Virus record (IMG/VR): IMGVR_UViG_3300045988_061617
Span: 21,424 to 85,423 of that record
Length of the DNA stretch: 64,000 nucleotides
Strand: one strand, 5' to 3'
DNA from: a virus
The notes under the pieces are model-generated. The model was not told the origin of the DNA, searched no databases, and saw only the letters and a program-made list of their open reading frames with translations. Below, piece after piece: positions 4,033 to 56,942 of the stretch. The position numbers and the translations under genes are program-made. Positions within the stretch are counted from its first letter, which is position 1; each line of letters opens with the position of its first letter.

Positions 4033-5540
4033 GTAAATTTACAAAGAAAAACAAAGAGCATCTTGATTCTATGGTGATAGGTCAAGGACATACCATTATG
4101 GCTGGGTATATCCCAGAAGCAGTGGGAGCCCAGACTTTCTCAGAGAATTATTATAAGTGGAAGAATCCTACACCGGATTCTATTGCTCAATTTGGATTTT
4201 GGGGAGGGGATATAGATTATAATACCTATTACCCTAACCTGGATAAATCTGAATTAACTCCTAAAGACGAGGAATTTATTGAGCCAATGTTTAGATTACT
4301 TTCGGAAACGATAGTATCTAAGAATTGGAATCCAACGGATTTTGGTCAAAATGGAGTATTAAAAGCATCTATGAGAATGTTACTTGGTCAAACAGTAAAT
4401 TGTGATCATGAAACAAACATAGGTAATGCTATTGGGGCTGTATCTCAGGTAATGTGGCAAGAATCCTATAAAGATGGTAGCTTTACTATACCTGCAGGTA
4501 TTAACGGTATTCTAAAGATTGATGGTAAAGCTAATCCTAGAATTGCTAGAGGTATCCTTATGGAACCACCTTCAATCCATAGTAATTCGGTTACTGTGCA
4601 ATTTAAGTGGGATAAATCTCATCCCCAAATGGAAGATAATGAATTCTATCAGAAACTTGGTACCTATGACTCTAAGGGAGTAATGGTACGTAGAATAGTT
4701 ACTGAAGTAGTTCGTTATTTGGAGACCTCATTGGTATCACATGGAGCTGATTCTTTTGCTCAAAAAATTGGTTCTGATGGTAAAATTATCAATCCGACTC
4801 TTGCTAAAAGGACTTGGGCATCATACGAAGAATATAGAGATGATAAATCTAAGCAATACTTTTTTACGGATTATAAATCTGACTTAACTTCATATCAAGA
4901 AAAGAACGATACTCAAAGTTCTTTTAATGATAATGATACCCAGGATAATCATTCAAACGAAAATAATATGAACGAATTAGAAAAATTTCTCGAAAGCCTT
5001 TTTGGGGATAATATGCTTGCCCTTGAGGAAGGTAAAGAAATGAATCAGGAAAATGTAATTGCCTGTATTCAAAATTTGGTATCATCCAGAAACGAGTTGC
5101 AAACTTCAGTAGATAATCTTACTACAGAGAAAAATTCTCTTACAGAACAGGTTACTAACTTGAATGCAGAAGTAGCTAATCTTAAAGAGATGGCAACTGT
5201 AGGAAAGAATCATATTGCTTCTCTCCGTGAAGATGCCGTAGCAACTTATAAAAAGTTGATGGGTGATAAAGCAGATGAAACCATTGTTACAATGCTTAAT
5301 GCAGAAACAACTGGTATTACTACTCTTGTTTCCTTGACTAAGGATTACCAAGTTCGCTTGGAAGAGAAGTTCCCTCTCACTTGCTCTAAGTGTGGTTCTA
5401 AGGATGTTAACCGTGCTTCTTCTCTTACTGAGGATTACAACCAAGATAGGGGTAGTAAAGGTACGGATACAAACCAAAACTCTGAATCATCGAGTACTAA
5501 GAATGTAATCGATAATCTCTATCGAAACAAAATCAAATAA
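4029..5540 (+). CDS. Putative prohead protease / scaffolding fusion protein
   Basis: Lies between portal and capsid. A globular N-terminal half is followed by a long heptad-like coiled coil (NELQTSVDNLTTEKNSLTEQVTNLNAEVANLKE), as in Mu gpI/gpZ-type protease-scaffold genes. No catalytic motif was verified. Confidence 0.4.
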   Translation: MSKFTKKNKEHLDSMVIGQGHTIMAGYIPEAVGAQTFSENYYKWKNPTPDSIAQFGFWGGDIDYNTYYPNLDKSELTPKDEEFIEPMFRLLSETIVSKNWNPTDFGQNGVLKASMRMLLGQTVNCDHETNIGNAIGAVSQVMWQESYKDGSFTIPAGINGILKIDGKANPRIARGILMEPPSIHSNSVTVQFKWDKSHPQMEDNEFYQKLGTYDSKGVMVRRIVTEVVRYLETSLVSHGADSFAQKIGSDGKIINPTLAKRTWASYEEYRDDKSKQYFFTDYKSDLTSYQEKNDTQSSFNDNDTQDNHSNENNMNELEKFLESLFGDNMLALEEGKEMNQENVIACIQNLVSSRNELQTSVDNLTTEKNSLTEQVTNLNAEVANLKEMATVGKNHIASLREDAVATYKKLMGDKADETIVTMLNAETTGITTLVSLTKDYQVRLEEKFPLTCSKCGSKDVNRASSLTEDYNQDRGSKGTDTNQNSESSSTKNVIDNLYRNKIK

Positions 5541-5565
5541 GTAATCATAATAAATAATCCGCATT

Positions 5566-6036
5566 ATGGAAACAACGAAAATCGTAAATGATCCTCAGCA
5601 ACTTACTCTCTTTGGAGAAAGAACTCCGAGAGCGGTGATTTACAAGAGTGAATCTCACAAATTGCATCAGGCTTTCAATGTTAAATCTGGAGAGAAAATT
5701 GTACAGGGTATGCCCGTAGCTTTGAATAAAGATGGTTTAATTTACCCCTGTACTGATACCACTACTCAAGTTTACTTGGGTGTAGCAGTAACAGACAATG
5801 TTAACCCTGCTTATCAGCCTCAAAGAGACTTCCCAGTAGAAGTAACAGTGGCCGTAGAAGGTTACATGATTTGTAACTGGGTATCTAACGGAACTATCGA
5901 AGCTGGATATGTAACTCCATCTGGAGATTTACTTAATGACCGTTTCGTTAAGGCTAACCAAGCTATTTCAACTCCGTTCATTGCCCTCAATCCTGCAGAA
6001 GAGGCAAATGAGGTAATTCAAGTACTCATTAAATAA
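5566..6036 (+). CDS. Small head protein (decoration / DUF2190-like position), function uncertain
   Basis: 156-aa ORF immediately upstream of the major capsid gene. The assignment is by position only. Confidence 0.25.
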   Translation: METTKIVNDPQQLTLFGERTPRAVIYKSESHKLHQAFNVKSGEKIVQGMPVALNKDGLIYPCTDTTTQVYLGVAVTDNVNPAYQPQRDFPVEVTVAVEGYMICNWVSNGTIEAGYVTPSGDLLNDRFVKANQAISTPFIALNPAEEANEVIQVLIK

Positions 6037-36960: not shown

Positions 36961-37614
36961 TTAATACTTAAGTTCTTCTTTAGCTCTATCTTCCCAATAT
37001 TGTATATCTTGTCTAAGTTCTGAGATATATCTCATGGACTCATTAGTCTTAGGCATTTCAAAAAATTCTACAAGCATAATATTGGTAATTCGAGTACTAT
37101 TACCAAGTCTCTCTTTAATGAAAGGTGGAGGAGTAATCAATACTTCAAATAAGAGATAGGCATCTGGAGAAAGCTTATCCTTCATATAGGTATACATTAT
37201 ATCAAGCATTTCTGATTTAGCTTTCTCTTCTTCGGTATCATCCTCTAATTCTTTATCATTATCGAATAAATCATCCAGTTTAAAGAGGCTTTGATTATAC
37301 TCTGCTTGTTCTCCGTATGCAGAACGAAGCAATTTATTCTTAAATGTACTCAAGGAAGCAAGAATCCTTGCTTTGAGATGTTCTTCAGTACATTCACCAT
37401 AGTATTTATTAAAAACAAATAACATCTTGTCCCAGAAATAAGACTGAATTATATCTGGTGTAAGATTAAACCTTTTATAATCAATCTGTCTGGTAAGATT
37501 CCTAATCACTGGCTTACAGACTTTATAAAGTCTATTGAAAGTAGCTTCATCATATTCTTGCATAGGTTTTAATCGATGAAGCTCTGAGCCATTATTTCCT
37601 TTACTTTTTCCCAT
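36961..37614 (-). CDS. Putative phage sigma factor (sigma-70 region 2 / region 4-like)
   Basis: FNRLYKVCKPVIRNLTRQI...DIIQSYFWDKMLFVFNKY...FKNKLLRSAY resembles ECF-type region 2. An acidic linker follows, and the C-terminal ITNIMLVEFFEMPKTNESMRYISELRQDI resembles a region-4 HTH. It is the only complete minus-strand gene. Confidence 0.45.
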   Translation of the reverse strand: MGKSKGNNGSELHRLKPMQEYDEATFNRLYKVCKPVIRNLTRQIDYKRFNLTPDIIQSYFWDKMLFVFNKYYGECTEEHLKARILASLSTFKNKLLRSAYGEQAEYNQSLFKLDDLFDNDKELEDDTEEEKAKSEMLDIMYTYMKDKLSPDAYLLFEVLITPPPFIKERLGNSTRITNIMLVEFFEMPKTNESMRYISELRQDIQYWEDRAKEELKY

Positions 37615-37788: not shown

Positions 37789-39225
37789 ATGAAAAAGTTT
37801 AAAGACAACATCAAGTTTAGTTTTTCTCCTGAGTTTCAGTTTGAGATACTCAGGTTTGTTTTAAAAGATAAGGAAGGAGGATTAGTTCTTAAAAGGATTA
37901 AATCCAATTACCTGGTTCTCATAGAACACTCCCTTATCTTCGAGGGTATATCAAAATATTTTAAGAAGCAAGGCAGAATGCCCTCTGAGAATATTCTAAA
38001 AGAAGTATTAAAAGAATTGCTAGAATCAAAAGCATATATTGATTTGGTAACTAAGGATGACACCCCTAATATCAATAAGTTAATAAGCAATTTATATCAC
38101 ATTCCCTTATCGGATGCAGATTATATCAAGGAAAAAATTTACCAGTTCTCTACCTATGTTGAAATGAAGAACCTGAATGACTCTTTTGATTTAGATAACT
38201 TCGAACAATATGAAGAGTATTCAAGGAAGATTGAGAAAGTACTTCAGAAAAGTAAACCAAAGAAAGAGGACGAACCTATATACATGATTCGAGATATTAC
38301 AGAGAGACAGTTTAAAAGACAATCAGAACCCTCGGTAATACCCTGTCCCTTTAGGCAATTAAATGACCTTACTAATGCAGGAGGTTATCCCGAACATTCT
38401 ATTAATGTAATATTGGATAAACCTAAAGCAAAGAAAACTTTCTTCATGGTAAACCTTGCCCGAGGTTATCTTCGAATGAAGAAATCCGTATTATACGTAG
38501 ATACCGAGAATGGTAAAGACCAAATCATGGACAGATTTATTCAATCTAGTATCAATAAAACCAAAAAGGAATTATACTCAGGTGAGTATGATAAACTTGA
38601 AGCTAAACATTTAAGAAAGCTTGCAAGATTTGGGGTTGAATTGGTGGTTGAGAGGGTACCAGCAATGATTACTAATACCACTTATATAAGGGAAAAGATA
38701 ATTCAACTTCGTAATCAAGGAATCGATATTAAAGTTCTTATGGTTGACTACGCTGGTAAGCTTGCATCAATAGCGGGTGATAGAGAAGATTTCGAAAGGA
38801 TATCTAATGTATATATAGACTTGAGTAACTTAGCCGAAGAAATGAAACTTGATATAATCTGGACTGCACATCATATTACTAGAGAGGGTAAAAAACATAG
38901 AAAAACCAGATATGATGAAAATGATATATCTGGTTCTATAGCCATAGTAAGAAATGCTCAAGTAATTATGGGGTTAAATGCTACAGAACAAGAAGAAAGG
39001 GATGATATATTAAGGGCCGAGATAGTGGTTCAAAGGGATGGTCTACCATCAGGTAGAGCTCTTTTTAAATGCTCTACAGAAACTCAACGGTGTACCGAAT
39101 TTACTAGAGAACAACGAAAAGAATATGACAGGGTATATGGAGAACAACTAGATAATTCTCTAAAAAGTTCTAGTAACCCAGATGCTAATATAGAGAAATA
39201 TAACAAAAAGCAAGGAGATATATAA
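37789..39225 (+). CDS. DnaB-like replicative DNA helicase
   Basis: The C-terminal RecA-type domain is colinear with DnaB motifs: FRQLNDLTNAGG, ILDKPKAKKTFFMVNLA (H1), VLMVDYAGKL (H2), ISNVYIDLSNLAEEMKLDIIWTAHHITREG, DISGSIAIVRNAQVIMGL, AEIVVQRDG. Confidence 0.75.
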   Translation: MKKFKDNIKFSFSPEFQFEILRFVLKDKEGGLVLKRIKSNYLVLIEHSLIFEGISKYFKKQGRMPSENILKEVLKELLESKAYIDLVTKDDTPNINKLISNLYHIPLSDADYIKEKIYQFSTYVEMKNLNDSFDLDNFEQYEEYSRKIEKVLQKSKPKKEDEPIYMIRDITERQFKRQSEPSVIPCPFRQLNDLTNAGGYPEHSINVILDKPKAKKTFFMVNLARGYLRMKKSVLYVDTENGKDQIMDRFIQSSINKTKKELYSGEYDKLEAKHLRKLARFGVELVVERVPAMITNTTYIREKIIQLRNQGIDIKVLMVDYAGKLASIAGDREDFERISNVYIDLSNLAEEMKLDIIWTAHHITREGKKHRKTRYDENDISGSIAIVRNAQVIMGLNATEQEERDDILRAEIVVQRDGLPSGRALFKCSTETQRCTEFTREQRKEYDRVYGEQLDNSLKSSSNPDANIEKYNKKQGDI

Positions 39226-39806
39226 TGAAAGATAATATACCAGGATTTATGGGATACTACGTTTCTAAAACTGGGAGCGTATATTCAAGATATGTCCGAG
39301 GAAGTAGGGGTAAATTAAGTAATGAGTTTACCCCACTAATACCAAAGAAACGTCCCAAATACTATAGTGTATCCCTTTATAGGGATGGTAAGTCTACAAA
39401 GATTTTTGTTCACAGATTAGTAGCTACTGTTTATGTACCTAACCCCAATAATTTACCTGTAGTAATGCACTTAGATAACGATATTTATAATAATTATTAT
39501 AAGAATCTAAAATGGGGTACCCAGAAAGAAAATGTATACCAATCTATCAGGGATGGTAATAATCTGATTTCAGTAATGGGTAAGGATAATATACATCGTA
39601 AATTAAACTTAAATGATATACCTAAAGTAAAAGCTTATTATAATACATTACTATCTGAACTAATCCAATTAGGGTTTACTAAATGGAAAGTAAACAAAAC
39701 TTTATTAAGGGTTCTAGGAAAGAGATTTGGAGTTGGTGATAGGGTAATTCGTAATATATTAAATAACAGTTATGAAAACAAAGAAAGTAGAGGTAGTAAA
39801 AGATAG
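39225..39806 (+). CDS. HNH_3 homing endonuclease (paralog 1)
   Basis: VHRLVATVYVPNPNNLPVVMHLDNDIYNNYYKNLKWGTQKEN (HNH_3 motif) plus a C-terminal HTH (LGKRFGVGDRVIRNILNN). Free-standing between the helicase and primase genes. Confidence 0.85.
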   Translation: MKDNIPGFMGYYVSKTGSVYSRYVRGSRGKLSNEFTPLIPKKRPKYYSVSLYRDGKSTKIFVHRLVATVYVPNPNNLPVVMHLDNDIYNNYYKNLKWGTQKENVYQSIRDGNNLISVMGKDNIHRKLNLNDIPKVKAYYNTLLSELIQLGFTKWKVNKTLLRVLGKRFGVGDRVIRNILNNSYENKESRGSKR

Positions 39807-39951: not shown

Positions 39952-40879
39952 ATCTAGACTAAGGACATACTTTATTAAACGATTGGGAGGTTACGATTAC
40001 CGGCATGGCTGGATGCGTATACCAACTTGCCCCTATTGTGGGAGAGAACATAAGTTGGGAGTTAACCTTTCTATGTATAGAACCAATTGTTTTAGATGTA
40101 ATGCCCATCCTTCTCCTGCTCAACTAATAATGGATATAGAAGGATTTACTGAGTACCATGAACTAATTAATTTTTTGAACAATGGCCAATTTGATGAACT
40201 ACAGTTTAAGGAAGAGAAAATCGAACTTGCCGAAAGTAAGCCAGTATATCTCCCTGAGGGATTTAGAAACATTTCGCTCGGGGATAGCCAACTTGCAAAA
40301 AGCATTCGGGGATATATCAAGAAACGCGGATTTAGCCTCGAGAAGTTTTCAAGATACGGTATCGGCTATGGAACAAGCGGCTCAACGTATGGGTACCTCA
40401 TTATACCCTTTTATTACAAAGGCCAACTTAGATATTACAATGCTCGAAATGTTATTGGCAAAGGACCCAGATATAATAACCCAGACAAAGACATCACCGG
40501 TTTGGGAAAACAATTTATCATCTTTAATCATGATGCGTTGGAGATGTATCGGTCGGTATTCATTTGCGAAGGGGCACTTAATGCTCTCACAATTGGGGAT
40601 AGAGCAATTGCCACAATGGGCAAAGCTGTATCTAAATATCAGCTAAACGAATTAATAAAAGCTCCTTGTCAAAGGTATATAATCCTATTAGACTTTGATG
40701 CTCAAAAGTATGCTATAGAATTAGCCTTGAAACTTATACAATACAAGAAAGTAAAATTAGTTCTTTTTGATGATAATCGGGATGTAAATGATTTGGGTAG
40801 GAAAGCAGTTCTTAAAAAGGTTTATAAGACCAGATATACTACCTATCAAGGATTAATCAAACTTAAAAACTCACTATGA
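39929..40879 (+). CDS. DNA primase (zinc-ribbon + TOPRIM)
   Basis: CPYCGREHK...CFRCNAH (CxxC..CxxC zinc ribbon). TOPRIM Glu in VFICEGALNALT and DxD in ILLDFDAQ. The start could be downstream (M at 40013) if the small ORF at 39772 is real. Confidence 0.8.
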   Translation: MKITNQFKSRLRTYFIKRLGGYDYRHGWMRIPTCPYCGREHKLGVNLSMYRTNCFRCNAHPSPAQLIMDIEGFTEYHELINFLNNGQFDELQFKEEKIELAESKPVYLPEGFRNISLGDSQLAKSIRGYIKKRGFSLEKFSRYGIGYGTSGSTYGYLIIPFYYKGQLRYYNARNVIGKGPRYNNPDKDITGLGKQFIIFNHDALEMYRSVFICEGALNALTIGDRAIATMGKAVSKYQLNELIKAPCQRYIILLDFDAQKYAIELALKLIQYKKVKLVLFDDNRDVNDLGRKAVLKKVYKTRYTTYQGLIKLKNSL

Positions 40880-41406
40880 TGAAAGATAACGTACCAGGTT
40901 TTATAGGTTACCACATTACTAAATATGGAGAACTGTATTCAAGACGAGTAGAGAAATCTCCTTATAAGTTTGGTAAATGGCGTAAATTAAAACTTTCGAA
41001 AAAGCGTAGAGTTAAGGTAAAACTTTATAGGGGTCAGGTTGGTTATAATTTGAGTATAAGTAGGTTAGTAGCTTTAGTTTATGTGTATAATCCTAATCCC
41101 TATAAGTTTAATGAAGTAATGCACTTAGATAATAACCCATTAAATAATTACTATAAGAATCTTCAATGGGGTACACATAGTATGAATATACAACAGATGA
41201 TTTTTGAACAGAGGAGAAGATCTTTCAAAACTACTCAAAACCCAAACTGGGAGAATTTTAAAATTTCTGATAGAAAACAGAGAAGATTAAGAAGGCTAAT
41301 TGATTTAGGTAAAAGTAGGGTATATATTAGTAGAAGGTTAAGGGTGTCACGTAAAACGCTCTATAATTTTATTCATAGAATCCAAATCCGAAACTCTTTG
41401 GAGTGA
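40876..41406 (+). CDS. HNH_3 homing endonuclease (paralog 2)
   Basis: ISRLVALVYVYNPNPYKFNEVMHLDNNPLNNYYKNLQWGTHSMN plus a C-terminal HTH (RRLRVSRKTLYNFIHR). It shares the exact 18-mer AGTAATGCACTTAGATAA with paralog 1. Confidence 0.85.
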   Translation: MMKDNVPGFIGYHITKYGELYSRRVEKSPYKFGKWRKLKLSKKRRVKVKLYRGQVGYNLSISRLVALVYVYNPNPYKFNEVMHLDNNPLNNYYKNLQWGTHSMNIQQMIFEQRRRSFKTTQNPNWENFKISDRKQRRLRRLIDLGKSRVYISRRLRVSRKTLYNFIHRIQIRNSLE

Positions 41407-42473: not shown

Positions 42474-43061
42474 ATGAAAGGTTTACAATTTTTCGGAAAC
42501 AGAGTAGAGGATGCAGCTAATGCTTTTATAGATGTCCTCAAGTATTCAGACCAATCCGTGGATTATCCAGATTTTAAGGATATCGAACCATGGCCTGATG
42601 AGATAATTAATATGTTCTATGTGATTTGGAAGAATGCCAAGTTCTCAGAACTAAGTGCCATCATTATGTATACCCAACAGTCTTCTAGATTTGAAGAAAT
42701 ATCAGAATTGATGTTGGGTATTGGTTTGGTAGAGATGAGACACCTTGATAAGATATCGGACTTTTTACAAAAGGCAGATCCCTATGAGGATTACTCTACC
42801 ATGAATATTAATCCTACGATTGAGATTGGTTCTACTTGGGAACAAGCTTTAAAGATTGCTTTGAATTCCGAGATAGAAACTATTGGTCACTACAAGAAAA
42901 TTCAAAGAGCAATTGCTCAATACGAAGAACGCCCAGATTACGATGACGTGAATTATTTCCTTGAGAAATTGATTGCGGATGAGGAGCATCATATTAAACT
43001 TCTCAAGGAAGCAATGGGTATGGATAAATCTACTAAGGGTGTAACGGTAATTATCAAATGA
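42474..43061 (+). CDS. Ferritin-like di-metal carboxylate protein (Mn-catalase / CotJC-like)
   Basis: Four-helix E / ExxH / E / ExxH ligand pattern: FSELSAIIMYTQQS, GLVEMRHLD, SEIETIGHY, ADEEHHIKLL. Confidence 0.5.
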   Translation: MKGLQFFGNRVEDAANAFIDVLKYSDQSVDYPDFKDIEPWPDEIINMFYVIWKNAKFSELSAIIMYTQQSSRFEEISELMLGIGLVEMRHLDKISDFLQKADPYEDYSTMNINPTIEIGSTWEQALKIALNSEIETIGHYKKIQRAIAQYEERPDYDDVNYFLEKLIADEEHHIKLLKEAMGMDKSTKGVTVIIK

Positions 43062-45345: not shown

Positions 45346-45538
45346 TATGATATGGGCTATGTTCAAGGTATATTTGAATAACCCCAATTATTTAGTAAAG
45401 CAAGAGGATGTTCTTGCTGATTTATGTATGGAAGGCTCGGTAAATGTATTAAGAATGTGTAATTCATTAGGAGTATATGTTTCCAGACCCGATAAATTAA
45501 CCTTTGGACAACTTTTAAAAAAATGTAACATATTATGA
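45278..45538 (+). CDS. Hypothetical protein (true start probably the internal ATG at 45332 or 45347)
   Basis: The ORF-track start overlaps the upstream gene by 68 nt. The ATG at 45347 lies 1 nt after the upstream stop. Confidence 0.4.
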   Translation: MRNSKYPRNVLENFIENAMQKIDMIWAMFKVYLNNPNYLVKQEDVLADLCMEGSVNVLRMCNSLGVYVSRPDKLTFGQLLKKCNIL

Positions 45539-46074
45539 ACAGATTTAGATTTATCAAAGTAAGGGAGGTAATATCTCCAAACAGAGCAAACCCCAATGAT
45601 GCTGGGTTAGATTTTTATGTACCAACTGATTTATACCCAGAGCATATTCATTCTAAAAATGAATTCGACTCAGAAGGCTATGATTTAGATGTTCCTTTTG
45701 GTGAAGCCTTTGTAAGGCATATAGCTTTAAAACCTGGACATCGTATACTTATACCATCTGGTATTAGGGGATTGCTTGAACCACCTGCATCTATGTTAAT
45801 GGCTGCTAATAAGTCTGGTATAGCTACTAAGCAAGGTTTACTTTTTACAGCTGAGATAGTAGATTCACCTTATGTAGGAGAGATACACATTGGAATATAT
45901 AATGCTTCTGATAAGAATCAAGTTATCGAATGTGGTAAGAAGCTGGTACAGTTTATACATCTCCCTATCTATATCACAGAACCAGAGGAGATTCAACAAG
46001 AGGAATTCTATACTGAGTCTCAAATATGGGGAAGTAGAGGAGATAAGGGATTTGGTTCATCTCAAAATAAGTAA
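45535..46074 (+). CDS. dut: Trimeric dUTP pyrophosphatase (dUTPase)
   Basis: All five canonical motifs are present: NPNDAGLDFY, GHRILIPSGI, NKSGIATKQGL, VDSPYVGEIHIGIYN, RGDKGFGSS. Confidence 0.9.
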   Translation: MNRFRFIKVREVISPNRANPNDAGLDFYVPTDLYPEHIHSKNEFDSEGYDLDVPFGEAFVRHIALKPGHRILIPSGIRGLLEPPASMLMAANKSGIATKQGLLFTAEIVDSPYVGEIHIGIYNASDKNQVIECGKKLVQFIHLPIYITEPEEIQQEEFYTESQIWGSRGDKGFGSSQNK

Positions 46075-46077
46075 GCC

Positions 46078-46914
46078 GTGGACATAAGAAATATAAGAGA
46101 AGAAGTACCTCAAATAAAAGATACTGAGGTACTTTCAAATATGTATATATTGGGTATAGAACAATTAAATGGGTATAGGGAAATAGAATCATTACCTGAA
46201 TATCCTTTCGATGTTAATAGCCCAAAGAATCAGGTAGTATTAAAAGATTTTATAGGTAGAGTAATAGAAGAACTTACCGAGGGTTTTGAATCTACAGATG
46301 AAGTATTCGAACTTTGCAGTAAGCAGGGATGGAATATTGAGATGCTTAATGAAGAAGAGTACCAATCTATATTGAATTCTCTTTCTAATGCAAATGAAGA
46401 ACAAGCTGATGCTTTAGGTTTTTTCTTTACTCTTCTAGTATATTCAAATATACTCCCAGAAGATATACTAAAATATCATAAAGTTAATAACTTATTCGAA
46501 GTAATGGCTACTGGAGTTAAAGAATTGGTTATTAAATACCCAGATTATCAGAACTTACTAAAATTCGATATTATATGTGAAGAGGATTTTTATGAAGATA
46601 AAGATAAATGGGAACATATAAAATCTTACACTCCAGGCTTCCATCAGATGAATGAATTATCTCATGAAGCCGATAAGTTATATTTATGGGAAGTAATCTA
46701 TGAACTTAATAAAGCCAGGAATTTCCTTAAATGCAGGCCTTGGAAACAAACTCAAGTAATGACTAAGGAAATAGATTTTCAAGAATCCTTAGTAAAGGCT
46801 TTCTATCTCTATATGGGATTCTTAGCAATGAACGGATTTACTCCTCTTGGTTTATTTAGTTTATTCTTTAAAAAACAACGCCTTAATTTATGGCGTCAAA
46901 CTTCAAATTATTAA
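46078..46914 (+). CDS. All-alpha NTP pyrophosphohydrolase-like protein (dimeric dUTPase / MazG / T4 gp56 superfamily), putative
   Basis: GTG start. Acidic helix motifs VIEELTEGFES and ANEEQADALGFFF, then CRPWKQTQ and a C-terminal KKQRLNLWRQTSNY. These resemble the dimeric dUTPase-family pattern (E..E, E..D, WK, K..LN.(F/W)RQ..(G/N)Y). Confidence 0.35.
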   Translation: MDIRNIREEVPQIKDTEVLSNMYILGIEQLNGYREIESLPEYPFDVNSPKNQVVLKDFIGRVIEELTEGFESTDEVFELCSKQGWNIEMLNEEEYQSILNSLSNANEEQADALGFFFTLLVYSNILPEDILKYHKVNNLFEVMATGVKELVIKYPDYQNLLKFDIICEEDFYEDKDKWEHIKSYTPGFHQMNELSHEADKLYLWEVIYELNKARNFLKCRPWKQTQVMTKEIDFQESLVKAFYLYMGFLAMNGFTPLGLFSLFFKKQRLNLWRQTSNY

Positions 46915-46915
46915 C

Positions 46916-47404
46916 ATGAAGAAAGACAATATACCAGATTACCCAAACTTCTATATTTCTAAAAGAGGTAGAGTTTGGAAAAGGATAAGAGATGGTACTT
47001 GGAAAGAATTACCATATATTAAAAATCCTACTAGAGGTTATTTATATGTTAGTTTAAGTAAGGGAAAGAAATTTAGGTTGAATAGGTTAGTTGCCATGAT
47101 TCATATACCTAATCCAAATAACCTACCCATTGTAATGCACCTTGATAATAACATTTACAATAACCATTATAAGAATCTTAAGTGGGGTACTTATAAGGAG
47201 AATACTCAACAAATGATGAGAGAAGGTAGGAATAATGGTCAGTTTAAGTCTACCATTACTAAACAACAGATTAGTTTAATACTAGAGAAATATACTACGG
47301 GTAAATATTCTCAGATTCAATTAGCTAAGTTGGTGGGACTTAAGAGTCAGGGTAGAATAAGTAGAATTATAAATAAGTATCAACGTGTCAGGATGGAACC
47401 ATAA
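46916..47404 (+). CDS. HNH_3 homing endonuclease (paralog 3)
   Basis: MKKDNIPDYPNFYISKRG...LNRLVAMIHIPNPNNLPIVMHLDNNIYNNHYKNLKWGTYKEN plus an HTH (LAKLVGLKSQGRISRIINKY). The ATG at 46916 lies 1 nt after the upstream stop and is preferred to the ORF-track start at 46847. Confidence 0.85.
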   Translation: MKKDNIPDYPNFYISKRGRVWKRIRDGTWKELPYIKNPTRGYLYVSLSKGKKFRLNRLVAMIHIPNPNNLPIVMHLDNNIYNNHYKNLKWGTYKENTQQMMREGRNNGQFKSTITKQQISLILEKYTTGKYSQIQLAKLVGLKSQGRISRIINKYQRVRMEP

Positions 47405-48296
47405 ATTAGAGGGACTTCAGCTTAATGCAGAGGAGTCCCTCCATTCGTTAGAATTTGCTACTTCACAAGAAGCTTGGGAAAAACTCAATGAGGGTTTTCT
47501 AAGATTAGAGCCAATCCTATTCGAGAAAGGAGCTATGGCTAATAGTGGGGTAGCAGTAGTGTATAACGTATTTATAAAAATACGTAAAGCATGGGTAGAC
47601 CCAGAATTTGATTATGGGAGATGTTTCAATTACAAAGAAACTAAGTGGACTAGCTTATTGAATAATTACATAGATTTTAATAAGCTTGACTTATTGCGTA
47701 GTAAACTGAGAGTACTAAGAAATAAGTATAATCAGAATTATAATATAACTTATATGTTTAATAATCATCATGATAATGGTAAACAATGTTTAATAGCTGC
47801 TACATTCTCCAAACGATTTGGGGAAGATATACCTGTTATTACAATGGTAATCAGGGCATCCGAGATAACAAAAAGGTTAATCTTCGACTTCTTACTAATA
47901 CAACGAATGGCGGAATATGTGTACGGACCAGAACAATCAGTACAAATCAATTTATTTGCCACTCAAATGTATGGGAATGTAGAAACACTTCTGATGTATC
48001 ATACCTATAAACCTTTGAAGAAGGTATTAAAAGGGGCAGAAGAAAATTCATGGAATAAGAGAGTGAAGGAAATATGGAAGAAATTCCAAAACGGTACAGA
48101 GAAAGAATTCTCTTCATTCAAGGTATTCTTTAGAAGTTTTAAAGTGCTCAGACCAGATTTATATGAGGAAACATATAAATCAATGAAAGCAAAAGAATTA
48201 CTTCTTGAATATGAGGATATTGAATATCCAGAGAATGTAATCTCTTACTCTCAACGTAAAGCTTATAAAAAGAAACTTTTAAAACAGAAGAAATGA
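47385..48296 (+). CDS. Thymidylate-synthase-fold protein, divergent paralog 1
   Basis: GTG start. GKQCLIAATFSKRFGEDIPVITMVIRASEITKRLIFDFLLIQRMAEYV is colinear with the PC(H)..QF ... QRSxD ... PFN.ASYALL core of ThyA and with the downstream paralog. Cys and Arg are retained, but the GD.H.Y motif is not (FATQMY). Confidence 0.45.
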   Translation: MSGWNHKLEGLQLNAEESLHSLEFATSQEAWEKLNEGFLRLEPILFEKGAMANSGVAVVYNVFIKIRKAWVDPEFDYGRCFNYKETKWTSLLNNYIDFNKLDLLRSKLRVLRNKYNQNYNITYMFNNHHDNGKQCLIAATFSKRFGEDIPVITMVIRASEITKRLIFDFLLIQRMAEYVYGPEQSVQINLFATQMYGNVETLLMYHTYKPLKKVLKGAEENSWNKRVKEIWKKFQNGTEKEFSSFKVFFRSFKVLRPDLYEETYKSMKAKELLLEYEDIEYPENVISYSQRKAYKKKLLKQKK

Positions 48297-49063
48297 GGAT
48301 ATATTCTAACAGCTTTGAGTTAATGTCAGAACTTGGCAGAGAACTCAACAGTTATGGTCAAACTGTAAAACCAAAGACCTATCAGAATAAGGTAATTGAA
48401 GGTAATGAGGATTTTATAACAAAGGAACTCATTTGCCAACAATATTGCTTAACTTCACTCGGAGACCCAGTATGGTTATTTGTATTTTCTCATTCAAAAG
48501 AATGGGCAGATGCCGAGTTTGAGGAAAGAATTGGTTGGTACGAATTAAATCCTGGTAAAGCTTGGGAACTGAGAAAAGATTTATGGGAACAGTTTTTAGT
48601 TAATGGTAAATTTGATTATACCTATCCAGAACGTATTTGGAATCAATTATATCTGTATGGTAGTACATCATTTAATTGTGATTCTGCCATGCAATCGGTT
48701 ATCGAACTCCTTAAAAGGGATAATGATACTCGTAAGGCAGTACTCCCTATATTTCATGGTACAGACCTAAGATTCCTTGATGGAAGTAAACGTATTCCTT
48801 GTTCTATGTATTATGATTTCCTTATTCGTCAAAATGGTAAAGGAGAGAAGGTACTACATATCTGCTATCACCAAAGAAGTTCTGACTTTGTTACTCACTT
48901 TGGTAATGATGTATACCTTGCATGGAGGCTTATGGAATATGTTGCAAAAGAAGTTGGGGTTAAACCTGGTTACTTATACCATACGATTGATTCTCTTCAT
49001 GCTTATAAGAAAGATTGGTTAGCATTAGCATCTAACCTGGAAGACTTACAAGAGAAATACTAA
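48293..49063 (+). CDS. Thymidylate-synthase-family enzyme, paralog 2 (candidate deoxypyrimidylate hydroxymethylase or methylase)
   Basis: RIPCSMYYDFLIRQ...LHICYHQRSSDFVTHFGNDVYLAWRLMEYVA...HTIDSLHAY matches the ThyA catalytic Cys, QRSxD and D..H.Y motifs. A gapless hand alignment from the Arg places Asp where ThyA has Asn177. Confidence 0.65.
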   Translation: MRIYSNSFELMSELGRELNSYGQTVKPKTYQNKVIEGNEDFITKELICQQYCLTSLGDPVWLFVFSHSKEWADAEFEERIGWYELNPGKAWELRKDLWEQFLVNGKFDYTYPERIWNQLYLYGSTSFNCDSAMQSVIELLKRDNDTRKAVLPIFHGTDLRFLDGSKRIPCSMYYDFLIRQNGKGEKVLHICYHQRSSDFVTHFGNDVYLAWRLMEYVAKEVGVKPGYLYHTIDSLHAYKKDWLALASNLEDLQEKY

Positions 49064-49117: not shown

Positions 49118-51400
49118 ATGGAGACACGGTATACAATAATAAAAAACAAGAAAGAGCTTAAAAAACTTATTGCTTGTTGTAAAGCTACTGGTTATGCTTG
49201 TTGTGACTACGAAACAAATGCAGAACCAATATACAACAAAAGTTTTAAGCCAACTATACTTTCAGTATCCTGGATGCCAGGGTTTGGTGCTTCTATCCCT
49301 CTAGACCATTTCGAAACAAAAGATTATACATCTCCAGGGTGGAATTGGAAAAAGATGCTAAGGAAATTTGGGGAAGAGGTAATTGAGAATTATGAGATAA
49401 CCAAGGTTGCATGGAACTGGAAATTTGATGACCAGATAAACCAGAAATATCAAATATTCTATAGAGGTACTTGTTTAGATGGTATGCTTGCAAAATATCT
49501 ACTAAACGAGGAAAAACCTAATGATTTAAAATCAATGGTAAGAAGGTATTTACCAGAGTATGGTAATTATGAGAAGCAAGATGCTTTCGATAAAATACCT
49601 TGGGATAAAAAAGAGTTAGACCCACTTTGCCATTATGGATGTCAAGATACGGATTATACTCTTAGGTTAATGGTATTCTTTGAAAAGAAGCTGATTGACC
49701 TTGGTTTGTACAGTACCTTCAGGAATTTAATTATGTCTGCATCAAGGGTACTCACTTCAGTAGAGAAGAATGGTTTGTATCTAGATAGAGAGTTCAATAA
49801 TCAACTACTGGAAACATATAAACCAAAAATAGATGCGGCTAGACAAGCTATATATGATTTGCCAAGAGTAAAGAAATTCGAAAAGAAGTATAACCAAGAA
49901 AAGATTGATAAATATATTCAATCTATCGAAGCTGAACTTGAGGAGCTAGATTATAATGATCCAAAAGATAAACGAAAGATTGTATCAAGGGAACAGAAAA
50001 TCTCAAATATCAAGGCTGGTATATTCACAACTAAAAAGGAACAAGAATTGATAAGACCTATCAATTTGGGTAGTCCAGTTGATTTACCTGCATTGATGTA
50101 TTCGGAAGAAGGTTTTCATTTTGAGGTAATTAAGAATAATGAATCCGGTAAACCAAGTACAGATGAAGAGACTCTTACTAATCTAAGGTTAACCGTTAAA
50201 AAACCAGATTCACCTAAGGCAATTTTCCTTGATAGGCTTCTTGAATTACGAGGTTTAGAGAAGATGTATAAAACCTATATAGAGGGTTGGAATGAAAAAG
50301 TTCAAGATGATGATAGATTACATGGAAGATTTCTTATTCATGGGACTACAAGTGGAAGATTATCCTCTGCAGAACCCAATGCTCAACAAATTCCCAAGAC
50401 ATCCGTAGACCCCAATATTAAATTACAATTAAAAGCTCCTAAAGGAACCTTATATATTGCTAGTGATTTTAGCCAGGCAGAATTAAGAATTATGGCTCAT
50501 CTATCTGGAGATGAAACTTATCTTAATGCTTTTAACTCTGGTCAGGACCCTCACTTAGCAATTGCTGCTACTAAATATCATATACCCTATGAAGAAGCTC
50601 TTAAGATATATGAGGATGAAAATCATCCAGAACATAAGATATGGAAGGTGAGAAGAAAGCAAGCTAAACAAATTGCTTTTGGACTTATTTATGGAATTGG
50701 TGCAAAATTACTAGCAGTAAAACTATCTGACCCAAAATCTGGTATTATAGTTACACCAGAAGAAGCCCAAAAGGAAATGGACATATTCTTTGGTCAACAC
50801 CCCAAGTTGAAGACCTTCTTGAAGAAACAAGAGAAATTCCTTAGAAAGAATGGGCATCTGGTATCATTATTTGGGAGGAAAAGAAGATTACCCCAAATAT
50901 ATTCAAATGATAAGGGAGAAGAAGCTTATGCTTTGAGATTAGCATTAAATTTCCCATGTCAATCAGCAGCATCTGATATGTGTCTATTTGGAAGTATTCT
51001 CATATACTACTTAATGAGACAAGGTAAATTACCCTCTACTAAGTCTGTATGTTTGGTACATGATGCTAATTATCAGATTACTAAACCAGAGAATATTAAT
51101 ATTTGGAGTATATATGAGATGTGGCAAATTTATAGGAACCCATTAACTAAGCCATACTTCGGCTTTCAGATAGATGACCTAGATATGGAAATGGACTTTG
51201 TCATAGGTAGATCTATGGCAGAAGAACTACCATTTATTCCTGGGTATGATTATAGGAAAATGCTTGAACCAGATTTTTCAGTAGAAAAATACATGGAAGA
51301 GCATAAGAAATATAAGCATATAAAAATAAAAGAATACCCTAAGATATTCAAGAAAGAGATAGAAAGATATAAAGAGGATTATGAAAAGAAAATACACTAG
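49118..51400 (+). CDS. Family A DNA polymerase with a 3'-5' exonuclease domain
   Basis: Exo I CCDYETN, Exo II WNWKFDDQ, Exo III YGCQDTDYT. Pol motif A IASDFSQAELRIMAHLSGDE, motif B RRKQAKQIAFGLIYG, motif C CLVHDANY. Confidence 0.9.
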   Translation: METRYTIIKNKKELKKLIACCKATGYACCDYETNAEPIYNKSFKPTILSVSWMPGFGASIPLDHFETKDYTSPGWNWKKMLRKFGEEVIENYEITKVAWNWKFDDQINQKYQIFYRGTCLDGMLAKYLLNEEKPNDLKSMVRRYLPEYGNYEKQDAFDKIPWDKKELDPLCHYGCQDTDYTLRLMVFFEKKLIDLGLYSTFRNLIMSASRVLTSVEKNGLYLDREFNNQLLETYKPKIDAARQAIYDLPRVKKFEKKYNQEKIDKYIQSIEAELEELDYNDPKDKRKIVSREQKISNIKAGIFTTKKEQELIRPINLGSPVDLPALMYSEEGFHFEVIKNNESGKPSTDEETLTNLRLTVKKPDSPKAIFLDRLLELRGLEKMYKTYIEGWNEKVQDDDRLHGRFLIHGTTSGRLSSAEPNAQQIPKTSVDPNIKLQLKAPKGTLYIASDFSQAELRIMAHLSGDETYLNAFNSGQDPHLAIAATKYHIPYEEALKIYEDENHPEHKIWKVRRKQAKQIAFGLIYGIGAKLLAVKLSDPKSGIIVTPEEAQKEMDIFFGQHPKLKTFLKKQEKFLRKNGHLVSLFGRKRRLPQIYSNDKGEEAYALRLALNFPCQSAASDMCLFGSILIYYLMRQGKLPSTKSVCLVHDANYQITKPENINIWSIYEMWQIYRNPLTKPYFGFQIDDLDMEMDFVIGRSMAEELPFIPGYDYRKMLEPDFSVEKYMEEHKKYKHIKIKEYPKIFKKEIERYKEDYEKKIH

Positions 51401-51404
51401 TAAT

Positions 51405-51872
51405 ATGCCCATCGAGGGATTCTCTAAATATCATATTTGTAAGAATGGTAGATTATATTCTATTCACAGTGGTACTTGGAGATTGATAAAACCAGTACCA
51501 AAGAATACTGGGTATATATCTAATAACTTGATATCTGATTCTGGTAAAAGAGTTAACTTTTATCGACATAGATTAGTTGCAGAAGTTTATTTACCTAAGA
51601 ATGATGATACTTTAGTAGTATGCCATAAAGATAACAATCCTCGGAATAACAGGGTTAGTAATTTATATTGGGGAACTCCCAGAGAGAATACTCAACAGTG
51701 TATAAGGGATGGTAGATTCCCATTTCGTAAGAAGAAAATAATAGATGAAAATAAGCTGATACATCAATACAATCTAGGAATACCTAGAAAAGCTATACTA
51801 GAAGAGTTTCAGATATCTATTAAACCATTTTATAGGATTCTAAGAAAATATAATGTTAAACTACGAAAATAA
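51405..51872 (+). CDS. HNH_3 homing endonuclease (paralog 4)
   Basis: YRHRLVAEVYLPKNDDTLVVCHKDNNPRNNRVSNLYWGTPREN plus an HTH (ILEEFQISIKPFYRILRKY). The ATG at 51405 lies just after the polymerase stop. The ORF-track start at 51381 overlaps the polymerase gene by 20 nt. Confidence 0.8.
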   Translation: MPIEGFSKYHICKNGRLYSIHSGTWRLIKPVPKNTGYISNNLISDSGKRVNFYRHRLVAEVYLPKNDDTLVVCHKDNNPRNNRVSNLYWGTPRENTQQCIRDGRFPFRKKKIIDENKLIHQYNLGIPRKAILEEFQISIKPFYRILRKYNVKLRK

Positions 51873-53062: not shown

Positions 53063-53455
53063 ATGAATTATTCGATGACTTTTATCTCAACTTATGTAGC
53101 TGAGAAACTAAATCAGAGTTTACCTGGTACTCCAACTGAAAACCGGGTACTTATTGTATCTCCAAAAGATGTAAACACAACTAAAGCGGGTATCATTATT
53201 CCTGGGCAAGTAAAAGAGGGAGTTCCTCGAAAAGGGGTAATTATTAAATCTGGAGAAATTACTGAAGAGTATAAAACTTATAGAGATCTTTGTCAAATAG
53301 GTAGAATTGTTACCTATGGTATGTATGCTGGTAAAGAACTAGAGTTTGATACTTCTCTATTACCAGAGGCTTTATCAAAAATAATGGAGAACAATGAAAT
53401 CACGGTTCTATCCATGAACGAAATTATTTATTCAGAACCCAATAACGTAGACTAA
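53063..53455 (+). CDS. GroES/Cpn10-like co-chaperonin (T4 gp31 analogue)
   Basis: NRVLIVSPKDVNTTKAGIIIPGQVKEGVPRKGVIIKSGE...GRIVTYGMYAGKELEFD is colinear with GroES (DRVlV...e.kT.gGIvlp......k...G.VvavG ... vGD.V....y.G.e). Confidence 0.6.
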   Translation: MNYSMTFISTYVAEKLNQSLPGTPTENRVLIVSPKDVNTTKAGIIIPGQVKEGVPRKGVIIKSGEITEEYKTYRDLCQIGRIVTYGMYAGKELEFDTSLLPEALSKIMENNEITVLSMNEIIYSEPNNVD

Positions 53456-55497: not shown

Positions 55498-56362
55498 GAA
55501 AACAATATTACTGATTGATGGGGAGAACATTCTCCATCAATCTTTTCATAAGTTCGAAAAACTTAAATCTACCGATGGAAAACCCAGTGGGGCAATATTC
55601 GGATTTTTTAAATCCTTACATATGTATCTCACAAGGTTTGAACCAGACGAGGTTTATATAACTTTTGATAATGGTCACTCTCCAGTGAGGACAAAATTAT
55701 TACCCAATTATAAGGGACATCGGAAGAATATATCTATAGATTATGAGTCATTGCAGAATCAAAAGGCAATGATAATGAAAATGCTTGGTATGCTAAGAAT
55801 TAACTATATATTCGATAAAAAGAAATCCACAGTATACGAAGGAGATGATTTCTTAGCATACCTTGCAATTAAAAAATTCCAATCCGAGAAGATGATATTA
55901 ATATCTTCGGACAAGGATTTTAATCAGTTGCTTTCGAATAATCTAAGGATATATAATCCGAGAAAAGACGAAATGATAAGGATGGATAATTGCAAAGAGT
56001 TATTTGGCTATCATTCCCATGAAACAGTAGAATACCTTGCAATGGTTGGGGATACTTCAGATGATATTACTGGGTTCCCAGGTATTGGTCCAGTAAAAGC
56101 CAGGAAGATTCTTGATGATGGTAGAATTGAAAAGTTCATTGCTCAAAGTAAGAATAAAGAGTATCTTCAAATATGGAGAAGAAATGAACAATTGATTGAC
56201 CTTTTTTGGTTTGTAAGACATAACCCTTTAAAAGAGTTACCAGTAAAGTCAAAAAGACAGTTTAAATATGAGAAATTCAAGAAAGTATGTATCGAATACT
56301 CTTTAGCATCCTTCTTAACAAATGAATTTATAAAACCCTTTAAAGAATTACACCATGAGTAA
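55490..56362 (+). CDS. 5'-3' exonuclease / flap endonuclease (T4 RNase H-like)
   Basis: ILLIDGENILHQSFH, ITFDNGHSPVR...YKGHRK, YEGDDFLAY, ISSDKDFNQLL and the H3TH motif MVGDTSDDITGFPGIGPVKARKIL. The ATG at 55490 (ATGAGTAA overlap with the recA-like stop) is preferred to 55451. Confidence 0.9.
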   Translation: MSKKTILLIDGENILHQSFHKFEKLKSTDGKPSGAIFGFFKSLHMYLTRFEPDEVYITFDNGHSPVRTKLLPNYKGHRKNISIDYESLQNQKAMIMKMLGMLRINYIFDKKKSTVYEGDDFLAYLAIKKFQSEKMILISSDKDFNQLLSNNLRIYNPRKDEMIRMDNCKELFGYHSHETVEYLAMVGDTSDDITGFPGIGPVKARKILDDGRIEKFIAQSKNKEYLQIWRRNEQLIDLFWFVRHNPLKELPVKSKRQFKYEKFKKVCIEYSLASFLTNEFIKPFKELHHE

Positions 56363-56942
56363 ACGAATAATGTTTGTAGGTCCCTCTGGTATAGGAAAAA
56401 CCACTTTAGCTAAATATGTAGCTAAGAAAGAAGATATACCTTTTATCTCTGGTAGTATGTCGGATTTATTGCCTGCTACTAAAGATGTATCACATAGTGA
56501 GATATTATCTCTTGGTTCGGAGGCAATGTATAAATCAGACTTTCAACTTCTGAACTTGAGAAATAGGTTATTCAAAGATAAAGAATATTTCGTAACAGAT
56601 AGAAGTTATGCAGACTTAGCTGCTTATTTCTGGTACAAACAATCAAAAAGTATACCTGAATGTGAAATAGAACATTTTATTTGTCAATGTAGGACTTTGA
56701 TGGAAGGTCAATGTGATGTAGCTATATTTTTACCATTATCCCTAAGTACTTATAAGAATTGGTCAATGGAAGACAATGGTAAAAGAATACTCAATAGATT
56801 CTTTCAAGTTCAGATCTCTTCTCTTATGAGTGAACTACTTGCAAATTGGGAAATACCTACCATTTGTATTTCGGATTTGAATTTAGAAATGAGAATAGGA
56901 CAAATAGATTATCATCTAAGTAGAATATGGGAAAAGAAGTAA
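56355..56942 (+). CDS. P-loop deoxynucleotide/deoxynucleoside kinase-like protein
   Basis: Walker A FVGPSGIGKTTLAKY. VTDRSYADLAAYF resembles the (E/D)RS motif of dNK-family kinases. 195 aa. Confidence 0.55.
   Translation: MSKRIMFVGPSGIGKTTLAKYVAKKEDIPFISGSMSDLLPATKDVSHSEILSLGSEAMYKSDFQLLNLRNRLFKDKEYFVTDRSYADLAAYFWYKQSKSIPECEIEHFICQCRTLMEGQCDVAIFLPLSLSTYKNWSMEDNGKRILNRFFQVQISSLMSELLANWEIPTICISDLNLEMRIGQIDYHLSRIWEKK

Follow-up and report, generated by a model that had tools for sequence, protein, structure and literature searches.

Bacteriophage T4 makes the precursors of 5-hydroxymethyl-deoxycytidine (hm-dC) with gp56, an all-alpha dCTPase/dUTPase, gp42, an enzyme of the thymidylate synthase (TS) fold, and gp1, a dNMP kinase. 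The present work concerns a gene cluster of related content located within a 64,000-nucleotide stretch of viral DNA corresponding to positions 21,424 to 85,423 of the IMG/VR record IMGVR_UViG_3300045988_061617 (this whole analysed stretch is hereafter called the window). A preliminary description of the window had pointed to a T4-like pyrimidine-modification gene set, in which a pyrophosphatase-like open reading frame (ORF B) is found near two tandem TS-fold ORFs (D and E). From the folds, residues, gene order and conservation observed in these genes and their relatives, we infer the substrates, the product and its incorporation into DNA: rather likely, B, D and E form a pre-replicative cytosine-replacement cassette making a C5-modified dCMP for the phage DNA.

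A residue code has been published for predicting the products of TS homologs. Replacement of Asn177 of ThyA by Asp switches the substrate to dCMP, the hydrophobic Leu143, located three residues before the catalytic Cys (position -3), goes with methyl products and Asp or Glu at this position with hydroxymethyl products, and Asn in place of Asp169 is diagnostic of the flavin-dependent 5-hydroxy-dCMP synthases (PMC13326640). A hydroxymethylase signature composed of Asp145 (-3) and Ser94 (-2 from the catalytic Tyr) was proposed from the ternary complex of T4 gp42, whose D145N variant is inactive and in which the C-terminal lid is missing (PMC6400193). The TS homolog of phage Xp12 was shown to make 5-methyldeoxycytidine (5mdC) (bioRxiv 10.1101/2024.12.05.627091). 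In a published experimental selection for modified cytosine, the phage contigs were enriched in Asp177 TS genes, which lie on the selected contigs beside genes of an all-alpha pyrophosphatase, a deaminase and a family A DNA polymerase (PolA).

Profile searches of both TS-fold ORFs had been proposed in the preliminary description. ORF E was retrieved by the Thymidylat_synt family PF00303 (Table 1), whereas D was retrieved by no profile. A MAFFT alignment of E with E. coli ThyA, T4 gp42 and the Xp12 enzyme places C170 at Cys146, R195-S196-S197-D198 at R166-S167-C168-D169, and H236 and Y238 at H207 and Y209. The specificity residue D206 is aligned with Asn177 of ThyA and Asp179 of gp42, and the residue before it is Asn in both E (N205) and gp42. 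The Asp initially proposed at this position is therefore kept in E under proper alignment, and the two predicted sequence stretches on which the assignment had been founded, RSSDFVTHFGND and RASEITKRLIFD, are both read in the window. Conservation was evaluated on 117 relatives of E taken from related loci: 116 of them have D206, all 117 have C170, R195, S196, D198 and Arg147, and H236 and Y238 vary little or not at all. As judged from sequence, the retention of Arg147 speaks for an active homodimer of E. In the PDB, E is closest in sequence to the phage HY126 dCMP hydroxylase (9iqu/9iqc) and the CMP hydroxymethylase MilA, both of which act on cytosine nucleotides. E is thus best described as a putative dCMP-directed, folate-type TS homolog.

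E nevertheless differs from ThyA in several respects besides Asp206. The position of Leu143 is occupied by Arg167 in 116/117 relatives, only 18 residues are found beyond Tyr238 so that no ThyA-type C-terminal lid exists, and the score against the NCBIfam thymidylate-synthase equivalogs is at most 50 bits for cut-offs of 108-427; the PF00303 fold and the equivalents of Cys146, Arg166-Ser167, Asp169, His207 and Tyr209 are present. Tyr109 stands at the T4 Ser94 position and did not vary across the alignments, which covered 30 E homologs and 10 relatives. The residues at -3, +1 and 177 and the number of residues after Tyr209 or its equivalent are Leu, His, Asn and 55 in E. coli ThyA, Asp, Thr, Asp and 28 in T4 gp42, and Asn, Pro, Asp and 61 in Xp12 and PaMx74, which have an adjacent dihydrofolate reductase (DHFR) gene and no D gene. 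Arg, Ser or Thr, Asp and 7-18 residues are found in the window protein and in its counterparts from phages P21, Serbin, GTE2 and Polewnik, with no DHFR and always a D gene: D lies upstream of all five short-tailed Arg-type TS examined and is missing beside the two long-tailed TS of the 5-methylcytosine (5mC) type. On these sequence features, the Arg-type lid-less class falls outside the published product code. Assignment of E as a flavin 5-hydroxy-dCMP synthase was considered and rejected although 9iqu is its best PDB match, since Asp169 is retained; the D169N mark is absent from both proteins (D198 in 117/117 sequences of E, E160 in 96/96 of D).

ORF D and D-family profiles gave no match in Pfam, NCBIfam or PDB sequences by sequence and profile searches, and a Pfam scan of 50 family members returned zero matches. 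When 1.8 billion cluster representatives were searched exhaustively with HMMER, only 138 relatives (clusters at 50% identity) came up. The fold of D became visible because structure prediction and Foldseek were used where sequence searches had given nothing. The AlphaFold2 model, computed from an alignment of 54 of the 138 relatives, is confident (predicted local distance difference test, pLDDT, 90.5; predicted TM-score, pTM, 0.87), and its Foldseek matches in the PDB are nearly all members of the TS superfamily, with a probability of 1.0, one designed protein appearing at rank 35. MilA ranks at the top (7.7e-6), followed by the HY126 dCMP hydroxylase 9iqu (3.4e-5) and the T4 dCMP hydroxymethylase (~1e-4), and the ordinary thymidylate synthases rank beneath these dCMP/CMP enzymes. 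The TM-scores are only 0.37-0.55, which means that roughly the core superposes. The same TS-superfamily picture was obtained with BFVD, where the uncharacterised protein A0A2I6PI74 of Pseudomonas phage PMBT14 matched D above any annotated TS (E=2.5e-8, TM 0.59/0.67); on the strength of this comparison of predicted models, a D-like fold may extend to further cultured phages.

The active-site register of D was derived from three independent alignments, namely BLASTP of D with E (E=0.004) and two hhalign runs comparing the D family to the E family and to a ThyA-headed profile. All of them equate C135, R157, E160 and D168 with C146, R166, D169 and N177. In the model, C135 precedes strand 136-143, R157 is part of strand 151-160 and D168 of helix 164-180; in other words, the Cys starts a strand, the Arg lies in the next one and the Asp in the first turn of the following helix. 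The four residues are invariant in 96/96 D-family sequences, also in members at 23% identity, as are Y83, K87, W88 and Y95. The Asp assignment in D was accepted because the alignments agree, the fold matches and the residues are invariant. Neither an Asn at the specificity position nor a fold other than that of TS was found for either ORF, two outcomes which would have contradicted the initial claims. D is devoid of Arg126/Arg127 equivalents (the hhalign alignment shows a gap at S-R-R), carries Ala158 where Ser167 is expected, and has no H-x-Y, the motif which holds His207 and Tyr209, the ligands of the deoxyribose 3'-OH. The strong divergence and the missing D..H.Y motif reported initially for this paralog are borne out. 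Its place in the TS superfamily is consequently supported by the fold of the predicted model, PF00303 recognition and the phosphate and 3'-OH ligands being absent. The start codon of D is GTG, as supported by the N-terminus MSGWN conserved in relatives. D is a member of an undescribed family which, despite a TS fold and invariant catalytic-type residues, is left 'hypothetical' in its entirety by annotation pipelines.

A scan of 185,579 species genomes of bacteria and archaea gave a single D-family match, on the 82 kb contig CALFLM010000093.1 (L250) of a Romboutsia metagenome-assembled genome bin; from its length, this is probably a phage contig sorted into a bacterial bin. Virulent phages seem to be practically the only carriers of the D family.

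The all-alpha NTP pyrophosphatase-like nature of B was examined by means of PF08761. The window protein scores 20.9 bits, just below the cut-off of 22.9, its cassette relatives reach 25.1-45.2 bits, and T4 gp56 obtains 25.4 bits over the same C-terminal region. Comparison of B to gp56 by hhalign gave a probability of 74% over the last 53 amino acids only, the match being confident over the C-terminal third alone; both proteins end in ...K-x-x-x-N-x-x-R-x-x-x-x-Y. The paired acidic motifs E64-E65-x-x-E68 and E107-E108-x-x-D111 of B are invariant in 14 diverse members. Motifs of the types E-E-x-x-E and E-x-x-D are the metal ligands of the MazG/HisE/dimeric dUTPase superfamily, and the initial description of B agrees with these motifs and with the scores of its relatives. 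ORF A, which precedes B, was correctly recognised as a trimeric dUTPase: it scores 51.4 bits on PF00692 (cut-off 22) and displays the readable motifs AGLDF, VDSPYVGE and RGDKGFGSS, the latter of the C-terminal RGxxGFGS type; it remains below the NCBIfam equivalog cut-offs. The P-loop dN(M)P kinase announced in the preliminary description, ORF F, has a P-loop and a PF13521 score marginally above the cut-off, while its specific kinase assignment is weak. F matches phrog_2107 'thymidylate kinase' over residues 2-162 (1.6e-7), its PDB matches span the P-loop only, and some sources label its relatives 'deoxynucleoside kinase'. Its position after the FEN gene is kept in relatives, and its kinase class is plausible.

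Approximately 160 related loci, collected from IMG/VR and GenBank, were searched with profiles. The order (A)-B-D-E-PolA is invariant in these loci, including that of Clostridium perfringens phage P21, and B was always directly upstream of D in those examined. A is absent from P21 and from loci L001, L087-L096, L110 and L119/120, in which B-D-E is present; the trimeric dUTPase is optional to the cassette, and of the four-gene nucleotide set initially proposed, B, D and E form the conserved core while A stands outside. A second, weaker dUTPase-like ORF is found after the first one and before B in L155 (3911-4576 and 4588-5307) and L164 (5803-6357 and 6367-7086). Among the most distant D members with recovered flanks, P0350 and P0365 (23-24% identity) lie between a B-like gene on the upstream side and an E-like gene on the downstream side; several distant members are known from contigs of 1-2 kb, whose incomplete flanks were nonetheless recognised by the profiles of B and E. 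D is thus an obligatory, conserved member of a widespread cassette, no loose oddity, and is tied functionally to E because it strictly co-occurs with the lid-less Arg-type TS. The cassette is probably expressed together with the PolA gene located directly downstream. In the IMG/VR collection, 425 stretches encode an ORF D relative, and the best 80 of these 425 are 96-98% identical; this lineage is one of the more abundant phage lineages of the collection.

Exceptions to the common arrangement were observed. On an ENA contig (L086), a canonical ThyA gene (2-658), with Leu143, His147, Asn177 and a C-terminal tail, lies directly upstream of a D-like gene (655-2106) and overlaps it, this being the only pairing of D with an ordinary TS seen. 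The D-like protein of this contig (P0295) is 483 amino acids long, and its C-terminal extension is low-complexity P/Q-rich sequence; the contig ends straight after the D gene. Pfam scans of the longer D-family proteins revealed no informative fusion. On another contig the order is B, D and a metallophosphatase gene, with no TS after D. The related human-gut phage MT121964 (L002) contains tandem D copies (4000-4989 and 4982-5767) before a single E, with the Cys, Arg, Glu and Asp retained in each copy of D. The HNH endonuclease gene interrupting the cluster in the window, an initial assignment upheld by the phrog_59 match, probably starts at an ATG one base past the stop codon of B. HNH genes are found in relatives at the A|B, B|D, D|E or E|PolA junction, or not at all; the window gene is therefore a mobile insertion, outside the pathway. 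In several relatives (e.g. L087, L090, L091, L094, L096, L097), the PolA gene occupies two distinct ORFs or is considerably longer, which, together with the varying HNH junctions, suggests that homing is active or that intein-like elements have been inserted.

Three cultured phages were reached through the weaker tblastn matches of E, namely Serratia phage Serbin, Gordonia phage GTE2 and Brevundimonas phage Polewnik. In each of them, an unannotated gene of 269-297 codons is located directly upstream of the 'thymidylate synthase' gene. The D-family profile matched the products of these genes with values of 1.7e-11 (Serbin gp51), 2e-4 (Polewnik gp77) and 0.045, not significant (GTE2 orf39), and all three display the pattern Cys ... 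R-x-x-[E/Y]-x7-D. The pyrophosphatase gene upstream of the D-like gene is recognised by PF08761 or annotated 'dCTP pyrophosphatase' in Serbin and GTE2 and is unannotated in Polewnik; a kinase or P-loop gene is also found upstream, and PolA is nearby in all three. A cytidine or dCMP deaminase gene directly follows the Arg-type TS in two of the three, Serbin and GTE2. ORF E is matched by 70 Gordonia records in tblastn searches, and the carriers of the cassette span phages of four bacterial phyla.

The pathway proposed for the cassette can be summarized as follows. B would hydrolyse dCTP, and possibly dUTP, to the monophosphate, by which canonical dCTP would be removed and dCMP supplied. Asp206 of E would select cytosine, Cys170 would attack C6 of dCMP and a one-carbon unit would be placed on C5 from methylene-tetrahydrofolate. 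A phage kinase, for which ORF F is a candidate, and the host NDP kinase would make the triphosphate, to be incorporated into DNA by the phage PolA. D would act either as a subunit completing the lid-less E or as a second-step enzyme on the same nucleotide. The initial suggestion that the phage replaces or modifies cytosine is supported by the Asp at the specificity position of both TS-fold ORFs. The modification may be 5-methyl, 5-hydroxymethyl or other. The lack of Asp145 and Ser94 equivalents argues against a T4-style addition of water, the lack of both a lid and a DHFR gene argues mildly against reductive methylation, and, as E is devoid of the published hydroxymethylase signature, a T4-like hm-dC is one of several possible products.

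A number of observations weigh against cytosine replacement by B, D and E. At the positions which determine the product, E resembles no characterised enzyme, and neither the dCTP specificity of B nor the substrate of F is predictable from sequence. The hhalign links of D to TS are individually weak (probability 13-19%). Structure prediction, which the preliminary description had called for and which succeeded with D, gave for E a poor AlphaFold model (pLDDT 55) from a shallow alignment (76-94% identity); the residue roles in E consequently rest on sequence alignment, although this model still retrieved TS-family structures only in Foldseek. Scans of the window ORFs and of 10 kb downstream in a relative revealed no glycosyltransferase or other recognisable post-replicative modification gene. 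The GenBank title of MT121964 mentions a DNA cytosine methyltransferase, which would be needless if all cytosines were already replaced. Finally, no DNA modification is described for any carrier in the literature searched on the cassette, the C. perfringens phages, Serbin, GTE2 and AfhB/HY126, which yielded genome announcements at most. In the same scans, no DHFR, ThyX or zinc deaminase was recognised, and the suggestion that the phage may lack a conventional dTMP synthase is in line with the absence of ThyX and canonical ThyA among the scanned ORFs.

TS enzymes are obligate dimers in which each subunit donates an Arg147-type residue to the site of its partner, and TS heterodimers engineered to have a single functional site are established. 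D could in this manner be a non-catalytic pseudoenzyme which heterodimerises with E as its structural or regulatory half, for example in replacement of the lid. The translational coupling of the two genes (start of E and stop of D overlapping in ATGA), the strict association of D with lid-less TS of the Arg type and the loss of the R126/R127, H207 and Y209 phosphate and 3'-OH ligands are what such a partner would display. We nevertheless regard it as unlikely: the invariance of Cys135, Arg157, Glu160 and Asp168 down to 23% identity is unexpected in a dead site, Arg147 in all sequences of E fits an active homodimer, MT121964 has two D for one E, and one D-like gene following B has a metallophosphatase gene and no TS behind it. 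Since the catalytic-type residues of D are invariant and Arg147 of E is kept, we lean towards a catalytic role of D beside E, and away from an inactive partner. A possible, though rather unlikely, extension of the cytosine-replacement cassette is that D and E constitute an unrecognised two-component TS-fold system yielding a cytosine nucleotide whose C5 substituent differs from those of 5-methyl-, 5-hydroxymethyl- and 5-hydroxy-dCMP. E would then form an exocyclic-methylene dCMP intermediate and D would set the outcome, as a new TS-fold enzyme class with a Cys/Asp cytosine machinery and no canonical phosphate/sugar site.

Two further explanations dispense with modified DNA. In an alternative thymidylate route, E would methylate dCMP and the 5-methyl-dC nucleotide would be deaminated to the dT nucleotide, which would meet the dTTP demand of a 33% GC genome (the module region is at ~32-35% GC) without a dUMP-dependent synthase. 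A covalent Cys-C6 adduct promotes C4 deamination, and D might deaminate or process the nucleotide where no zinc deaminase is encoded; to our knowledge, however, no TS-fold deaminase exists. The deaminase gene directly following the TS in Serbin and GTE2, the lack of one among the scanned window ORFs where D is still kept, and the vicinity of a D-like gene and a canonical ThyA in L086 would all be accommodated; the presence of both D and a zinc deaminase in Serbin and GTE2 also implies that D is no simple substitute for the latter. In Xp12-like phages, 5mC-selective deaminases beside the Asp177 TS were proposed to make dTTP from 5mdCTP (bioRxiv 10.1101/2024.12.05.627091), but the same pathway also gives fully 5mC DNA in Xp12, so that modification is not excluded by it. 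E moreover lacks the lid and the adjacent DHFR of the TS of Xp12, which was tested to make 5mdC, and of PaMx74, and this route appears quite improbable. Still less credible is the assumption that E is an ordinary thymidylate synthase with an odd active site and D a decaying duplicate, the locus serving to boost dTTP and to keep uracil out. The label 'thymidylate synthase' given by databases to E relatives and the adjacent dUTPase gene would agree with this, against Asp instead of Asn at position 177 in all but one of the 117 relatives, an NCBIfam score of 50 bits which is far from the equivalog cut-offs, the missing lid and Leu143, and a D gene whose catalytic-type residues are under strong purifying selection and which is kept across phages of four phyla.

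Nucleotide-level cytosine replacement governs the resistance of phages to restriction enzymes and CRISPR, skews sequencing and virome quantification, and has been in the past a source of enzymes for epigenetic sequencing. The residue code used for predicting the products of TS homologs has a gap, as the Arg-type lid-less class is not covered by it. Should the two-component reading be true, very abundant human-gut phages would carry an undescribed DNA base, and so would the cultured phages of C. perfringens, Serratia, Gordonia and Brevundimonas. The base content of cassette phages is directly testable in these existing cultured and tractable isolates.

The features of the locus are listed in Table 1; each of the ORFs named in the preliminary description was found at its coordinates. 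The cluster is part of the replication module of the phage, at ~33% GC (32-35% around the module region of the window), where nearly all genes are on the + strand. Four HNH ORFs of phrog_59 are present in this module. A ferritin/rubrerythrin-like ORF lies directly upstream of a superfamily 2 (SF2) helicase gene and is kept in L155 and L164. A GroES-like co-chaperonin ORF is found among the replication genes and adjoins the gene of a single-strand DNA-binding protein. The sole sizeable minus-strand ORF, of 217 amino acids and without family match, is located at the boundary between the structural and replication modules.

Table 1. Coordinates of the cassette and of neighbouring features in the window.
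Feature	Position	Strand	Evidence
ORF A, trimeric dUTPase, accessory	45535..46074	+	PF00692 1.2e-13; phrog_135 3e-20
ORF B, all-alpha NTP pyrophosphohydrolase, dimeric-dUTPase/T4 gp56 family, candidate dCTPase	46078..46914	+	PF08761 20.9 bits (cut-off 22.9); phrog_12184 2.7e-18
HNH homing endonuclease, between B and D	46916..47404	+	phrog_59 1.2e-35
ORF D, highly divergent TS-fold protein	47385..48296	+	AlphaFold2 model and Foldseek; invariant residues
ORF E, putative dCMP-type TS homolog	48293..49063	+	PF00303 1.8e-13
Family A DNA polymerase (PolA), directly 3' of the cassette	49118..51400	+	Gene order in ~160 loci
ORF F, P-loop nucleoside/nucleotide-kinase-like, weak assignment	56355..56942	+	PF13521 27.8 bits (cut-off 27); phrog_2107
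Minus-strand ORF	36961..37614	-	
HNH ORF	39225..39806		phrog_59
HNH ORF	40876..41406		phrog_59
Ferritin/rubrerythrin-like ORF	42474..43061		PF02915 6.6e-7; PF00210 7.7e-7
HNH ORF	51381..51872		phrog_59
GroES-like co-chaperonin ORF	53063..53455		phrog_3188 1.1e-6

When the locus is compared to the T4 pathway, the likeness resides in B, whose relatives in the cassette fall in the Pfam family of gp56, in E, which has 'ND' at 176/177, the Cys, R-S-x-D and H-x-Y, no ThyA lid and a short C-terminus (18 residues versus 28 in gp42), and in a putative small P-loop kinase encoded nearby. The differences are the Arg of E in place of the Asp or Glu at -3, the Tyr in place of the Ser or Thr before the catalytic Tyr, the absence beside gp42 of a second TS-fold gene resembling D, the lack of a glucosyltransferase among the scanned ORFs, and an unrelated backbone (PolA, DnaB, SbcCD). 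The T4 analogy therefore holds for parts B and E, but the published hydroxymethylase signature is missing in the latter.

The cassette of Xp12 and PaMx74 (pyrophosphatase, TS, dCMP/dCTP deaminase, DHFR) similarly has the pyrophosphatase gene directly upstream of an Asp177 TS gene and near PolA, and Serbin and GTE2 also carry a deaminase. It belongs to a nucleotide-level pathway leading to full replacement of C, which by analogy might apply to the window cassette. The features of this dCMP methylase type were observed in two members and follow no curated definition; Asp177 alone is common to E, which has Arg at -3 and a short tail instead of Asn at -3, Pro at +1, a 61-residue tail, an adjacent DHFR and no D. 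The flavin 5-hydroxy-dCMP synthases (RB69 gp48, DLP3 gp80 and HY126 AfhB; 9iqu/9iqc) are likewise short, lid-less and dCMP-specific with Asp177, and provide the best PDB sequence match of E and some of the best fold matches of D, but both window families keep an acidic residue, Asp198 in E and Glu160 in D, where these enzymes have D169N. MilA, the CMP 5-hydroxymethylase of mildiomycin, is the top Foldseek match of D, with ~320 amino acids and Asp at the specificity position; it is recognised by PF00303 and has phosphate-binding arginines and Asp at -3, none of which is found in D, and the superposition of the two has a TM-score of only ~0.39 and a root-mean-square deviation >13 A. Nucleotide-level cytosine modification with an Asp177 TS is of a known kind, whereas the widespread paired TS-fold cassette, the B-D-E-PolA unit and the D family are new.

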